From the IMG/VR virus record IMGVR_UViG_3300016665_000124: a stretch of DNA of 42,576 bases; one strand, 5' to 3'. This document shows, one piece after another, positions 3,080 through 40,145 of the stretch (the stretch's first letter is position 1; every line of letters starts with the position of its first letter). Source of the stretch: a virus. The notes under the pieces were generated by a model. It ran no database searches. It saw only the letters and a program-made list of their open reading frames with translations, and was not told the DNA's origin. Position numbers and translations under genes: made by a program.

Positions 3080-3200
3080 TCGCTGGATTGATGTGCTTGA
3101 AACCAGCGAAGGTGAGCCGCTTTACCGCGCCTGCGGTCAAGGCATGTGCCGCTACACCAATGATCTTTGGCAAGCGGAGATTTACGTCCAGTATTACTAG
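3033..3200 (+). CDS. Hypothetical small protein (last gene of the rightward arm)
   Basis: ATGAC start within track ORF 2838..3200 (M-T-MERKIIERLDRGHDRWIDVLE...). Its stop overlaps the stop of the convergent HNH gene in a CTAG. Confidence 0.4.
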   Translation: MTMERKIIERLDRGHDRWIDVLETSEGEPLYRACGQGMCRYTNDLWQAEIYVQYY

Positions 3201-3526
3201 GAATCCAGCCAGTCCATAATTATGGCTTCCTGGGAAACCGAATAAAACGGCTGCGCTGCATACCAGACGCGCCAGTCCTGATGCGCCTTTTCGCGGTTGC
3301 ATCGCAGGCAACATGCCACCAGGTTGTGCCTGACGGTTTGACCGCCCTTAGCCTTTGGCTGCACGTGATCTAGCGTTGCTGTCGCCTTGGTCAATGGCGT
3401 GAAGCAATAGGCGCATTGCTCATTAAAGGCCAGCATGATTTGATCACGCCAGCGCCGCTTTGCTTCTGCTTTACGAATCAGTTCGCCATCGTCGATGTAG
3501 TCATCAATCATGCAGCCTGCACGCAA
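3197..3526 (-). CDS. HNH endonuclease
   Basis: CAYC...LDHVQPKAKGG....NLVACCLRCNREK matches the HNH beta-beta-alpha metal-finger motif. Confidence 0.8.
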   Translation of the reverse strand: MRAGCMIDDYIDDGELIRKAEAKRRWRDQIMLAFNEQCAYCFTPLTKATATLDHVQPKAKGGQTVRHNLVACCLRCNREKAHQDWRVWYAAQPFYSVSQEAIIMDWLDS

Positions 3527-4089
3527 GGCATCACGCGTAAATGCCCGTTGTAATGCCCAGTGACGCTGTAGTCACGGTCAGGCCGTTGGGCCATCTGGAA
3601 GAAGACCATCTGGCCGATCTTCATCCCAGGCCATAGTGCCAATGGCCGCAACTTGCGTGCATTAGTGATCTCCATCGTCAACCTACTGCCATGCCAACCT
3701 GGATCGCAGTAGCCAGCAAGAAGATGTTCAAAGCCCTGCCTTGCACGGCTTGACTTAAGGACAAACTGAGCGGCTACGGTATCTGGCAGGTTGAAGATCT
3801 CCTGCGTTTCTGCCAGCACAAAGCATCCAGGCTGCAGCAGGTATGGGTCTTCTGCAGTGTTGTAGGTGATGTCTACCAGCTGCATCTCATCGGTGTCTGG
3901 CACTTCTTCCATCACGTGCCAGCCGAGCGTAACGTCAAGGCTTGCAGGATTTAGCAGCTCTGGATTGAACGGCACCACCATGGCCTCCTGTTGGCACAGG
4001 TGGCGGATTGCATGATCAGGCAAAATCACGGCATCACCAGCAGCGCCCAACCGGAGCCAAGCCCTTCGACCTGCCAGCGTGGCAGCCAA
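3508..4089 (-). CDS. dcd: dCTP deaminase / dUTPase-superfamily protein
   Basis: ILPDHAIRHL..VVPFNPELLNPASLDVTLG and GYCDPGWHGSRLTMEITN...L.PGMKIGQMVF match Dcd signature blocks. The ATG at 4089 overlaps the upstream gene by 64 nt, so the true start may be internal. Confidence 0.75.
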   Translation of the reverse strand: MAATLAGRRAWLRLGAAGDAVILPDHAIRHLCQQEAMVVPFNPELLNPASLDVTLGWHVMEEVPDTDEMQLVDITYNTAEDPYLLQPGCFVLAETQEIFNLPDTVAAQFVLKSSRARQGFEHLLAGYCDPGWHGSRLTMEITNARKLRPLALWPGMKIGQMVFFQMAQRPDRDYSVTGHYNGHLRVMPCVQAA

Positions 4090-4733
4090 TTCTTGCGGCT
4101 GTAGGCCACACCTTTGCCTTTGGAATGGTTGGCATAGCCACCGTTAACGAGATCCGCCTCACCGTTTGGATCGTTATGGATGAAGGCCTCACTGTTATAG
4201 CCAATCACGACGCTGTAGTGGCCGCCGCCAGTGGGTCGGCTTGCTGGACCTTTGTGCAGCCAGCCAGCCGCTACGGGGCGACCAGCATTGATCTCACGCT
4301 CAAGTAAATCTGGCGTGGCATTCGTGACGAACCGTGGCTGCAGGCCAAGACTGGTCAATGCACGCACCTGCGCCGAGGCATCTGTGCTGTCGCCATAGCG
4401 TGCACGGATCTTGTTGTATTCGTCATCATTGCGCACCTTGCCATAGAAGCGCGCAATCATTGCGCAGCTACTTGAGAAGCACTCGCGATAGCCTGTGCCG
4501 CTGGCGTTATCGTTCTGGTACTCATAGGCAACAGGTAGTGGATTGGCGTGATTCTGCTGCTTGCCGTCCTGGCTCCATACCTGAAACCATTCGGTATCGC
4601 GTCGCATCACTTCCGCATAAGATTTGCCGCTTAGCAGAGCCTGCTCTAGCTGGCTGATAGCGGCCAGCTGGTGAGGGAGGCCACGGTTGAAGCGGAAGAG
4701 CTGCTCCAGGGTGATGGGTGCTGGGTTGCTCAT
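4026..4733 (-). CDS. Peptidase C39-like (papain-fold) cysteine peptidase, candidate endolysin
   Basis: YQNDNASGTGYRECFSSSCAM (candidate catalytic Cys) and GGHYSVVIGY (candidate His), with two small membrane ORFs immediately upstream. Confidence 0.55.
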   Translation of the reverse strand: MSNPAPITLEQLFRFNRGLPHQLAAISQLEQALLSGKSYAEVMRRDTEWFQVWSQDGKQQNHANPLPVAYEYQNDNASGTGYRECFSSSCAMIARFYGKVRNDDEYNKIRARYGDSTDASAQVRALTSLGLQPRFVTNATPDLLEREINAGRPVAAGWLHKGPASRPTGGGHYSVVIGYNSEAFIHNDPNGEADLVNGGYANHSKGKGVAYSRKNWLPRWQVEGLGSGWALLVMP

Positions 4734-4981
4734 AGAGATTCGCGGGCTTCTAGTTTGCTGACCCGTTGCTCCAGCCCATTGAGGCGGGAGTAGGTTTCGG
4801 CGCGGTCGGATTTGAGGTCTACGTGGAGCTGCTCTAGGCGGCTTGAGACGGACTCCACGGCAAGGGTGAGGCGAATGACCGCTTCACGGCCTTCGGTGGC
4901 GCGTTTGGTGACGCCCGTGACGCCAATGCCCGCAAAGGTGAGGACGGCACCAACGATGGCCGCAGCGATCTCAGGTCCCAT
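4730..4981 (-). CDS. N-terminal TM helix plus coiled-coil protein (holin-associated or i-spanin-like)
   Basis: 83 aa: IAAAIVGAVLTFAGIGVTGV followed by a heptad-like charged helix. ATGA-coupled to the peptidase gene. Confidence 0.5.
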   Translation of the reverse strand: MGPEIAAAIVGAVLTFAGIGVTGVTKRATEGREAVIRLTLAVESVSSRLEQLHVDLKSDRAETYSRLNGLEQRVSKLEARESL

Positions 4982-4984
4982 AGG

Positions 4985-5131
4985 TCAGCGTGGCTTGTGG
5001 GCGGCTACAGCGCGCAGCACCGAAAAGACGAGCTGAAGCCAGCCATTGGCGCGGACGCCTGGCAGCAGGCTGAGCACCTCAGATCCAGCCAACAGGCCGA
5101 TGGCGACAGCGACGATCTGCTCTTGGCTCAT
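4985..5131 (-). CDS. 48-aa hydrophobic protein, candidate holin
   Basis: Hand-translated MSQEQIVAVAIGLLAGSEVLSLLPGVRANGWLQLVFSVLRAVAAHKPR. It is below the track size cut-off and sits directly upstream of the lysis-like genes. Confidence 0.4.
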   Translation of the reverse strand: MSQEQIVAVAIGLLAGSEVLSLLPGVRANGWLQLVFSVLRAVAAHKPR

Positions 5132-5154
5132 GAGTTGTTGGGCGATAAGACAGT

Positions 5155-5517
5155 CTAGGCTGCGTCGCTTAGTGGTTCGGCTGCGTCGGTGCTAGGTGGC
5201 GTGGGAGCCCAGGGCAGCCCCGTCGCCTGCTTAGGGTTGCGCTGTTCGTCGATCTGCTGGGCCAGCGACGCTGCGTAGGCGTCCACTAGCTCTTGGCCCA
5301 TGACGACGTGGAGCCACTCCAGCACCAGCTCGGGGAATAAGCCGTCGTAGGGGATGAAGTCATCTGGATCAGCCGGCGGCAAACCCAGGGTGCCGTAGGC
5401 GCCAGCGCTTAGGCCGTCGTCTTCGGTGAGGTTGACGGTCCAATGGATGGTGGTAACGGTGCCATCAGGCAAGGAGCGATCCAGGGTGTTGATGGACCAG
5501 ACGGGTGTAGCAGTCAT
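5155..5517 (-). CDS. Conserved phage protein downstream of the tail fibre gene
   Basis: 120-aa ORF. The W-x-I-x-x-L-D...DG-x-V...HW pattern is one I recall in small proteins following phage tail fibre genes. Confidence 0.5.
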   Translation of the reverse strand: MTATPVWSINTLDRSLPDGTVTTIHWTVNLTEDDGLSAGAYGTLGLPPADPDDFIPYDGLFPELVLEWLHVVMGQELVDAYAASLAQQIDEQRNPKQATGLPWAPTPPSTDAAEPLSDAA

Positions 5518-36336: not shown

Positions 36337-36358
36337 GGGGCCCTGCGGGGCCCCTTTT
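36337..36358 (+). terminator. Rho-independent terminator
   Basis: GGGGCCC-tgcg-GGGCCCC forms a 7-bp all-GC stem with a 4-nt loop, followed by TTTT (36355-36358). Confidence 0.7.
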
Positions 36359-38910: not shown

Positions 38911-38943
38911 TGCCGGCATTAGGGTCCTTCTCTAATGCCGGCA
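38911..38943. promoter_or_regulatory. Perfect 12-bp inverted repeat TGCCGGCATTAG-(9 nt)-CTAATGCCGGCA
   Basis: Seen directly, about 100 nt downstream of ssb, followed by TTCTTCC. May be a terminator-like hairpin or a protein-binding site. Confidence 0.6.
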
Positions 38944-39039: not shown

Positions 39040-39288
39040 ATGGAATGCCCAAGCTGCCAGAACCGATGGATCAAGGTTGTAGAAACCAATACCCGCGAAC
39101 GCGATTACATCGCCCGCAAACGCCAGTGTGCCGCCTGCGATCACACCTGGTTCACCGTGGAGCAGATCGTCAGCCCTGACTCAATCACCTGGCGCAGGGC
39201 CGGCGGCACTGGCGGAAGGCCAGTGTTACGAAAAACAACAGCACCGCCCGACGTGCCCGAGATACCTGGCACCATTGAGCACAGCTGA
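39040..39288 (+). CDS. Four-cysteine zinc-ribbon protein, paralog of the 1435/1498 ORF
   Basis: MECPSCQNRWIKVVETNTRERDYIARKRQCAACDHTWFTVEQ. The track ORF starts at 38935, but that N-terminal extension looks non-coding. Confidence 0.6.
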   Translation: MECPSCQNRWIKVVETNTRERDYIARKRQCAACDHTWFTVEQIVSPDSITWRRAGGTGGRPVLRKTTAPPDVPEIPGTIEHS

Positions 39289-39322: not shown

Positions 39323-39559
39323 ATGGAACTACTTACTTCTGACTGGGCACCACACATCGAGAAGGCCGTGCGCGCCATCGCTGCTGTGGTCGTCGCCGTC
39401 TATGTCGCCGGGCTCATTACCGGCACCTTCGTCCACTGGGTCAATGACTGCATCGCAGGAAAACAAGAGTGGGCAGTGCCCACCCTTGTGATCAGCCCTA
39501 CACCCGCTTCCGCAATCCAGAAGCCCCTCAAGGCTAAGGCCCGAGGATTCAAGTCATGA
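39323..39559 (+). CDS. 78-aa single-pass membrane protein
   Basis: The internal ATG gives MELLTSDW...AIAAVVVAVYVAGLITGTFV..., with a basic C-terminus and ATGA coupling downstream. Confidence 0.5.
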   Translation: MELLTSDWAPHIEKAVRAIAAVVVAVYVAGLITGTFVHWVNDCIAGKQEWAVPTLVISPTPASAIQKPLKAKARGFKS

Positions 39560-39657
39560 GGATCATCGGCTTCCTGCTGCCAGTGCTGCTTGTCGCTGGC
39601 CTCGTGGTCCACAGTGCAGACCGCTGCATTCCAACCCATCAAAACGCCTGCCGATGA
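39556..39657 (+). CDS. 33-aa membrane or signal-like micro-protein
   Basis: Hand-translated MRIIGFLLPVLLVAGLVVHSADRCIPTHQNACR, with ATGA overlaps at both ends. Confidence 0.4.
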   Translation: MRIIGFLLPVLLVAGLVVHSADRCIPTHQNACR

Positions 39658-39968
39658 AACGCCTACTTCTTGCCTTGCTCCTGCTTGCTGCACCTGCCAG
39701 CGCTAGGCCTGTTACCGCCACCGTCTATGACGGCTGGTATCACGGCCGTGTTGCCTACTGCGGCGGCACCTATCGCCACTGGGGAATCAGCGCGGCTCAT
39801 CCATGGCTGCCATGCGGCACCAGGGTTCGCGTGAGCCATCGCGGTAGGTCGCTCACTGTGCCGATCACAGACCGCTGCGACTGCTCATCCATTGACCTAT
39901 CCGCTGGTGCGGCCTATCGCCTTGGCGTGCCGCTTGACGGCATTGCTCGCGTATGGATCTCGTATTGA
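39654..39968 (+). CDS. Secreted RlpA-like double-psi beta-barrel (DPBB) protein
   Basis: Signal peptide MKRLLLALLLLAAPASA, then ATVYDGWYHGR..YCGG....ISAAHPWLPCGTRVRVSHRGRSLTVPITDRC....IDLSAGAAYRLG matches the RlpA/DPBB pattern. Confidence 0.65.
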   Translation: MKRLLLALLLLAAPASARPVTATVYDGWYHGRVAYCGGTYRHWGISAAHPWLPCGTRVRVSHRGRSLTVPITDRCDCSSIDLSAGAAYRLGVPLDGIARVWISY

Positions 39969-39971
39969 GCC

Positions 39972-40145
39972 ATGGCACTACCTGCTGACTACACGCGTTG
40001 CATGGGCCTCAGGCCCGAATGCCCACAACGCAATGACTGCGCCAGGTTGCGCGACATCCCCGATAGCTACGTCATCAGCTGGGTGCACAACATGAACCCA
40101 GACCACAGCCAGCCCTGCCCCTGCTTCATCCCGTGGAAGCCATGA
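39972..40145 (+). CDS. 57-aa Cys-rich protein
   Basis: Hand-translated MALPADYTRCMGLRPECPQRNDCARLRDIPDSYVISWVHNMNPDHSQPCPCFIPWKP, ATGA-coupled downstream. Confidence 0.45.
   Translation: MALPADYTRCMGLRPECPQRNDCARLRDIPDSYVISWVHNMNPDHSQPCPCFIPWKP

Follow-up and report, generated by a model that had tools for sequence, protein, structure and literature searches.

A gene for a small double-psi beta-barrel (DPBB) protein of 104 a.a., which ends a run of three overlapping ORFs in the recombination arm of a siphovirus genome, stands alone: together with the two small membrane-protein genes that precede it, it forms no functional cassette and no new lysis system. The best reading of this gene, which we hold with slightly better than even confidence, is that it is a stand-alone accessory gene of picocyanobacterial siphoviruses, encoding an exported DPBB protein of the RlpA/PA4485 type that acts on the glycan of peptidoglycan.

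Genome context of the three ORFs

The window, by which we mean the whole 42.6-kb stretch of DNA that was analysed, is an essentially complete lambda-like siphovirus genome. Its capsid protein is 74−76% identical to the counterparts in Cyanophage KBS-S-2A and Synechococcus phage S-H1, and the Prochlorococcus phages P-HS2/MED4-184 have capsid proteins 61% identical to it. The minus strand carries the genes for primase/helicase, terminase, portal, capsid, tape measure, tail L/K/J and fibre, followed by the late lysis pair, and the plus strand carries, in this order, HNH, helicase, VRR-NUC, PD-(D/E)XK exonuclease, RecT and SSB. Downstream of SSB come a hairpin, an NrdR-like Zn-ribbon gene, the genes for a 78-a.a. 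single-pass membrane protein (TM78) and a 33-a.a. membrane peptide (pep33), the DPBB gene, and further small ORFs. The three ORFs thus belong to the helicase/exonuclease/RecT/SSB arm and not to the late operon, in agreement with an earlier note on this DNA, which had placed them outside that operon.

That note had also described three ATGA-chained ORFs of 78, 33 and 104 a.a. at 39,323−39,968, and their coordinates, plus-strand orientation and overlaps were confirmed. The TM78 gene (39,323−39,559, plus strand) and the pep33 gene (39,556−39,657, plus strand) share the start/stop overlap at 39,556−39,559, and pep33 and the DPBB gene (39,654−39,968, plus strand) share the one at 39,654−39,657. ATGA coupling is seen throughout the arm, with the next genes at 40,142 and 40,315 chained likewise; the chaining is a trait of the arm, with nothing peculiar to the trio. 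Directly 5' of the trio lies the Zn-ribbon gene (39,040−39,288, plus strand; PF22811, E = 4.8e-9), which is co-conserved with it in two related loci, L001 and L002. The gap between SSB and the Zn-ribbon gene contains a terminator-like hairpin (38,911−38,943, plus strand) with a 14-bp stem and a T-rich tail, for which RNA folding gave −25.2 kcal/mol (z = −4.7; 0 of 200 shuffles as stable). This hairpin, the sole outlier in a total terminator count that was otherwise at the level of shuffled sequence, may delimit the 5' end of the transcription unit that holds the trio. A promoter scan found none close to TM78-pep33-DPBB.

All three ORFs are genuine genes. In comparison with the diverged relative L002, dN/dS was 0.11 for TM78, 0.25 for pep33 and 0.14 for DPBB (range for DPBB, 0.14−0.23), with synonymous sites close to saturation (dS 0.9−1.7); the ORFs are judged to be coding because dN/dS is low despite this large dS. 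The pep33 product has 33 a.a. in the window and 39 a.a. in L002, and the difference is in frame.

The DPBB gene is distributed independently of TM78 and pep33

The three ORFs had been taken for a cassette, a view that the distribution of the individual genes contradicts. We found at least 857 relatives of the DPBB protein, the best 120 of which are 74−99% identical to it, and 247 viral contigs that encode relatives. We examined the neighbourhoods of 80 viral loci with a DPBB gene 71−99% identical. RecT and SSB recur in 41 of these loci; a TM78-like gene adjoins the DPBB gene in four (L001, L002, L070 and L073), and pep33 is present in two. One locus, L006, whose mature DPBB protein is 92% identical, has neither. 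The five TM78-linked DPBB proteins are not a clade, their most recent common ancestor covering 62 of the 79 tips of the tree.

The DPBB gene also occupies at least four positions within the replication/recombination arm. In most relatives it lies between VRR-NUC and the exonuclease, 1.6−2.7 kb upstream of RecT; it follows SSB in the window and stands beside the primase gene in L081, whereas L062, L068 and L071 have it close to the end with dCTP deaminase and the endolysin. The genes next to it form at least 25 clusters on the upstream side and at least 29 on the downstream side. These numbers give the order of magnitude, as the clusters come from simple longest-ORF calling at 57% GC and several of the antisense 'neighbours' are spurious. 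Co-inheritance across related phages, the mark of the components of a phage lysis cassette, is not seen for the trio. A TM78-then-DPBB order, found at different places in the genome in two sub-lineages, still hints weakly at linkage, but the other evidence outweighs it.

The genome has a conventional late lysis pair on the minus strand (4,026−4,981). It consists of the gene for TM83, an 83-a.a. protein with an N-terminal TM segment (4,730−4,981, minus strand), and an overlapping gene for a 235-a.a. endolysin with a Peptidase_C39_2 domain (4,026−4,733, minus strand; phrog_10051 'endolysin', E = 5.9e-78). The lysis pair also gave a match to phrog_26178 (E = 2e-30). The order DUF7936-TM83-endolysin (4,026−5,517) is conserved in KBS-S-2A, whose TM83 counterpart has 54% identity and whose endolysin has the same N-terminal domain but a different catalytic domain. 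Since KBS-S-2A keeps the late lysis order without a DPBB gene, DPBB is dispensable for lysis in this phage group. The other wall enzymes of the window phage, the endolysin (C39_2) and tail K (13,467−14,195; NlpC/P60), are both cysteine peptidases.

TM78 and pep33 are lineage-specific neighbours

Hydropathy analysis found one hydrophobic segment each in TM78 and pep33, in agreement with their earlier description as a single-pass membrane protein and a hydrophobic peptide. The segment of TM78 covers residues ~19−37 (KD19 max 2.34) and is flanked by charges of −1 on the N-terminal and +4 on the C-terminal side, from which an N-out/C-in topology with a basic cytoplasmic tail is predicted. The phage family of TM78 is small, with just three clusters among 5.8 billion proteins, and is characterized by the N-terminal module DWAPHIE-TM-H(W/R)xND. 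A profile scan found this module in seven further loci, six of which (L092−L097) have no DPBB gene nearby. The isolated phage KBS-S-2A likewise encodes an evident homolog of TM78 (CPKG_00023) and no DPBB protein.

The TM78 relative in L093 ends in an HTH_psq domain (39.9 bits versus a cutoff of 20.4), and its C-terminus is therefore cytoplasmic, in agreement with the charge distribution of TM78. No significant match of TM78 to a holin family was found in Pfam, PHROG or NCBIfam, and its place beside DPBB in four of the 80 loci falls short of the conserved adjacency to a lysin gene that is expected of a holin. Judged by these comparisons, the TM78 family does not look like a holin family. The pep33 peptide, with a hydrophobic core at residues 3−21 (KD 2.36), follows a layout of MR, a hydrophobic core of 16−19 residues, and a tail 12 residues long in which two Cys are conserved, and was seen solely in the sub-lineage of the window, L001 and L002. 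Both TM78 and pep33 are real, lineage-specific neighbours in a variable arm, and not parts of a DPBB system.

The DPBB protein is a single-domain member of the superfamily with a conserved groove

The 104-a.a. product had been called a signal-peptide RlpA/DPBB-like protein, and the domain search, the fold comparison and the N-terminus all bear this out. The Pfam DPBB_1 model matched residues 22−100 with 59.4 bits (cutoff 28.8; E = 4.3e-16), in an alignment spanning positions 2−81 of the 83-position model, and the motif quoted earlier for the mature part is the real DPBB core. Among NCBIfam families, rlpA is the nearest, with scores well under the curated cutoffs (TIGR00413, 36.1 bits versus 82.15; NF007953, 23 bits versus 201). 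Neither does the protein reach the cutoffs for the bacterial expansin EXLX1 (NF041144, 17.7 bits versus 100) or for the Streptomyces papain inhibitor family (NF041659, 25 bits versus 150; E = 1.5e-5). It has a single domain, not the two-domain expansin layout of D1 (DPBB) plus D2 (CBM63); the chain stops four residues past the DPBB_1 match, and Pfam gave no SPOR match in it. On the grounds of the score cutoffs, the lipobox (see below) and SPOR, we class the protein as a member of the DPBB superfamily but not as a true RlpA. A Pfam match to T4_Spackle (E = 0.15, residues 1−23) was dismissed as merely a likeness between signal peptides.

An AlphaFold model built on 40 relatives had a pLDDT of 88.6 overall and above 90 in the mature domain. 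The top Foldseek matches of this model were all DPBB proteins, which identifies the predicted fold as a six-stranded double-psi barrel. The best match was Pseudomonas aeruginosa PA4485 (4avr; E = 2e-7, TM 0.76/0.84, RMSD 1.7 Å), followed by the DPBB domain of the baseplate hub of cyanophage A-1(L) (8kea; E = 1e-6), and later by the fungal loosenin 9ce9 (E = 2.5e-5), the Streptomyces papain inhibitor 5ntb (E = 4.8e-5), kiwellins and expansins. In a viral structure library, the top matches were cyanophage proteins annotated as 'rare lipoprotein A'.

Across 121 sequences, D73 (in TDR), D81 (in IDLS) and Cys36, Cys54, Cys75 and Cys77 are invariant, as is much of the groove. D81 aligns with the D of IIDVS in 4avr (chain residue 70), and Asp70 of PA4485 is the aspartate common to MltA, expansin and endoglucanase V (PMC3539698). 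D73, whose TDR motif aligns to NDRGP, was considered as the catalytic Asp and dropped, as the alignment and the PA4485 study (PMC3539698) point to D81; D73 is a second conserved acid of the groove. The activity of RlpA requires one conserved Asp, and E. coli RlpA, which has Ser there, is inactive (PMC9712689). The clade has its own signature, in which a shorter DRCDC loop replaces the DRGP(x6-8) of ordinary RlpA-like proteins and four cysteines are invariant.

The N-terminus carries a predicted Sec signal without a lipobox

The N-terminus of the protein, MKR-L9-APASA|R, is a classical n/h/c Sec signal sequence with predicted cleavage after ASA, which would divide the protein into a signal peptide (residues 1−17) and a mature part of 87 a.a. 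In 113 of the 120 relatives, a small-x-small site precedes the invariant R18. A search of residues 1−35 for a lipobox ([LVI][ASTVI][GAS]C) found none in the window protein or its 120 relatives, and an AxA-type SPase I site stands where the lipobox would be expected. These signal-peptide predictions, like the TM predictions above, are based on hydropathy, charge and the −3/−1 rule. Because of the AxA site and the missing lipobox, we infer that the mature DPBB protein is exported as a soluble periplasmic protein and is not a lipoprotein, despite the family name.

Proposed function and alternative explanations

In the mechanism that we favor, the Sec pathway and signal peptidase I of the infected cell would deliver the DPBB protein to the periplasm, and the mature 87-a.a. 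barrel, with its groove and aspartates intact, would there bind the glycan strands of the host peptidoglycan. It would most likely go on to cleave these strands in the fashion of a lytic transglycosylase. A glycan-directed activity of this kind would complement the peptidase-type endolysin and tail K of the phage, and the thick cyanobacterial wall might thus be weakened or remodelled from the periplasmic side, both during infection and at lysis. If the preference of RlpA for peptide-free glycan applies here, the protein could be harmless in the periplasm until the peptides are removed. We regard export, a peptidoglycan substrate, catalysis over mere binding and a contribution to lysis as the most likely assignments on the present evidence. 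The DPBB domain of the A-1(L) hub lysed permeabilised Anabaena, and mutants in its conserved catalytic residues were inactive (PMC10966104), and PA4485 bound no sugar of those tried (PMC3539698). The same fold and both Asp residues also occur in non-catalytic expansins/loosenins and in a protease inhibitor, and the sequence is therefore compatible with cutting, binding and inhibiting alike.

Accordingly, several other explanations have to be weighed. One of them, unlikely but still to be taken seriously, is that the protein is a non-catalytic binder like an expansin or loosenin, which would loosen the peptidoglycan, mask it, or compete at division sites with the host's RlpA, and which might, for example, stall septation or change the extensibility of the wall during infection. 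Non-hydrolytic single-domain DPBB proteins are indeed among the close fold matches (loosenin 9ce9, E = 2.5e-5; bacterial expansins), PA4485 showed neither sugar binding nor a known activity (PMC3539698), E. coli RlpA is purely structural (PMC9712689), and host rlpA is stress-induced (PMC4916379). However, the Asp that E. coli RlpA has lost is invariant in the phage clade, the closest experimentally tested phage DPBB, that of the A-1(L) hub, is lytic, and the chain ends at residue 104, with no second CBM63-like domain of the expansin kind. The idea that the gene is a host-derived, AMG-like rlpA copy, which sustains the stress response or wall maintenance of the host and does not attack the wall, is improbable. 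Cyanophage rlpA genes have been called 'host-like' and host rlpA is induced by osmotic and phosphate stress (PMC4916379), and the S-CBP4 gene adjoins psbA in an island of host-like genes. Against this origin, no close cellular homolog of the protein was found, its nearest relatives outside the clade are metagenomic and mostly on short contigs, and the clade bears the DRCDC signature of its own. A host-origin scan of 185,579 species genomes, run with exact peptide patterns that miss distant rlpA genes, gave one close match, the 74% hit L081. L081 was rejected as a cellular homolog; it is a mis-binned contig of a related phage, in which a primase homolog adjoins the DPBB gene.

The earlier note had suggested that a holin-like protein and a secreted muralytic enzyme could here make up a second, non-canonical lysis system; one functional module of TM78, pep33 and DPBB acting in this way, whether the membrane protein is holin-like or an anchor, is in our view very unlikely. 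Its attraction lies in the ATGA-coupled TM78-pep33-DPBB order shared by the window, L001 and the diverged L002, and in L070 and L073, where a TM78-like gene lies directly 5' of DPBB with a 4-nt overlap at another genome position and the DPBB proteins are marginally the nearest to the window group (85−86% versus 83%). TM78 is also grossly holin-like, being small with one TM segment and a basic C-terminal tail. These points are countered by the absence of TM78 from 76 and of pep33 from 78 of the 80 close DPBB loci, by the L006 protein, 92% identical and without either partner, by the failure of the TM78-linked DPBB proteins to group as a clade, and by the TM78 family members in L092−L097 and KBS-S-2A that have no DPBB gene. 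Moreover, the HTH_psq fusion indicates that the tail of TM78 family members binds DNA in the cytoplasm, holin searches gave no match, a Sec-exported enzyme would need no holin for its export, the phage has its separate TM83-endolysin pair, and the ATGA coupling extends over the whole arm. Two further roles proposed for the trio, superinfection exclusion and wall remodelling, have no positive support; PADLOC-DB gave no match for TM78, pep33 or DPBB at E values up to 0.1. A role as an entry aid, also suggested, is unlikely because Sec export takes the protein out of the cytoplasm, the compartment in which virions are assembled.

It is likewise highly doubtful that the protein inhibits papain-like cysteine peptidases in the periplasm, in the way of the Streptomyces papain inhibitor, with either the phage's own C39-type endolysin or, in a Spackle-like form of exclusion, the NlpC/P60 tail peptidase of superinfecting relatives as its target. 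A phmmer comparison with 5ntb (E = 9e-4) revealed the common cysteine pattern VP.xD[RK]C..C...IDLS, the NCBIfam Papain_Inhib family (E = 1.5e-5) and the Foldseek match to 5ntb (E = 4.8e-5) point the same way, and papain-like wall peptidases, the C39_2 endolysin and the NlpC/P60 tail K, are present in the phage and its relatives. The Papain_Inhib score of 25 versus 150 bits is nevertheless far under the cutoff, the protein is closer to RlpA/PA4485 by every measure, it matches no defence family, and nothing ties the distribution of its gene to any one endolysin type. More doubtful still is an elaboration in which the members of the DRCDC clade are Spackle-like inhibitors, not glycan cutters, and have the papain-inhibitor version of the DPBB fold, and the two-Cys tail of pep33, in the periplasm, tethers or modulates it in the sub-lineage of the window. 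We therefore retain, at the strength given at the outset, the reading of a stand-alone accessory gene for an exported, glycan-directed DPBB protein.

Relation to known DPBB proteins

The closest known counterparts are the cyanophage 'rare lipoprotein A' proteins, such as S-CBS4 gp093, S-SRP01 QPD06452, S-PM2 p160, S-CBP4 SVPG_00027 and those of S-CRM01 and S-CBWM1, which share with the window protein a single DPBB domain in 98−120 a.a., a hydrophobic N-terminus and the [NT]DR...IDLS core, at 34−49% identity. Like the window's gene, theirs lie in variable or accessory regions, and they occur in all three morphotypes; the annotated carriers are the siphovirus S-CBS4, the podoviruses S-SRP01 and S-CBP1/3/4, and the myoviruses S-PM2, S-CRM01 and S-CBWM1. 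The S-CBP4 gene is directly upstream of psbA. The window clade, to which JGI has already given the label 'rare lipoprotein A', differs from the other cyanophage RlpA-like proteins in its shorter DRCDC loop, which replaces DRGP(x6-8), and in its four invariant Cys, and the window gene lies in a siphovirus recombination arm and not beside psbA or structural genes. In the literature, cyanophage rlpA genes have been discussed as host-like (PMC4916379), and in PA-SR01 an rlpA-type gene was put forward as a candidate lysis gene (PMC10286775).

The proteins found by the fold comparison resemble the phage protein in part. PA4485 is likewise a stand-alone exported DPBB protein of ~95 residues with the conserved Asp (35% identity), but it is the product of a cellular gene that is reported to be essential, and it lacks the cysteine staples. 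RlpA of P. aeruginosa and V. cholerae, a septal lytic transglycosylase, has in common with the phage protein the DPBB_1 catalytic domain, the conserved Asp and the periplasmic location predicted for the latter; in contrast, it is an outer-membrane lipoprotein of ~340 a.a. with a SPOR domain that targets denuded septal glycan, and the phage protein has neither a lipobox nor SPOR. The A-1(L) hub protein gp15 (8kea) contains a phage DPBB ('endoglucanase') domain, matched by the window protein over residues 300−374 with 32% identity, but this is part of an 899-a.a. virion protein that serves entry from the outside, and not a free protein exported by Sec. Sec-exported endolysins, such as Lys44 of Oenococcus phage fOg44, are wall enzymes that are exported by the host Sec machinery without a holin. 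Enzymes of the Lys44 type are the main endolysin of their phage, with canonical lysin domains, and are encoded within the lysis cassette, whereas the window phage has a separate conventional endolysin and its DPBB gene is dispensable in relatives.

The window DPBB gene is thus best filed as an addition to the known cyanophage accessory genes, and represents a distinct, abundant, cysteine-stapled DRCDC subclade. Few accessory genes of cyanophages are as widespread as the RlpA-like ones, to which the window adds a well-defined freshwater subclade. This subclade is very abundant, and it combines an evident export signal with an intact groove and a distinctive signature of the disulfide type. The finding leaves the current picture of phage lysis unchanged. 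As the DPBB gene acts by itself, without membrane partners, it narrows the experiments to one small protein.

Distribution and position of the DPBB gene

The gene for the secreted 104-aa RlpA-like protein (the DPBB gene, 39654-39968, + strand) also occurs on a 20-kb contig labelled 'Hyphomonadaceae MAG' (L081; JAIXVM010000181.1), where it is 74% identical to that of the window and is accompanied by homologs of the window phage's primase. This contig is almost certainly a cyanosiphovirus sequence mis-binned into an alphaproteobacterial MAG. A 98-aa rlpA-like gene was also found directly upstream of psbA in Synechococcus phage S-CBP4, a T7-like cyanopodovirus (L091, 2483-3850 region); it sits between the scaffold and capsid genes, in the island that houses host-like auxiliary genes.

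In most relatives, the DPBB gene occupies the gap between the VRR-NUC and exonuclease genes. In the window, this gap of ~760 bp contains a strong terminator-like hairpin (36337-36354, + strand). Another such hairpin (38911-38943, + strand; dG -25.2 kcal/mol, z -4.7) divides SSB from the block comprising a Zn-ribbon gene and the trio, that is, the DPBB gene and the two small membrane-protein genes preceding it.

Genes flanking the trio and the late lysis cassette

The Zn-ribbon gene of this block (39040-39288, + strand; PF22811, E 4.8e-9) encodes an NrdR-like protein and is kept together with the trio in both L001 and L002. The same arm of the window holds its paralog (1435-1761, + strand; PF22811, E 2.2e-10), and the pair may represent small phage regulators. 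The DPBB gene is followed immediately by a 57-aa cysteine-rich ORF with 7 Cys (39972-40145, + strand), for which we found no family match and no homologs in the 80 related loci.

The late lysis genes follow the order DUF7936-TM83-endolysin, where TM83 is an 83-aa protein with an N-terminal TM segment, in both the window (4026-5517, - strand) and Cyanophage KBS-S-2A (L099, 693-2366). The two endolysins share only their first ~50 residues, as if one catalytic domain had been exchanged for another after a shared N-terminal domain. The distal end of the late arm, just beyond the endolysin, carries dCTP deaminase and HNH endonuclease genes (3197-4089, - strand); many of the related loci also have a dCTP deaminase homolog near the DPBB gene, with the strand differing between loci.

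Membrane-anchored HTH proteins

In L093 (2495-2860), the N-terminal module of TM78, the 78-aa single-pass membrane protein of the trio, is joined to an HTH_psq domain at the C-terminus (39.9 bits), and in L095 (2477-2890) to an HTH-like tail with a weaker match. In four other loci (L010, L011, L037 and L053), the DPBB gene is followed by an unrelated 64-aa ORF with a TM segment, which gives weak, sub-threshold HTH-like matches. Small DNA-binding proteins tethered to the membrane seem to be common in this phage group.
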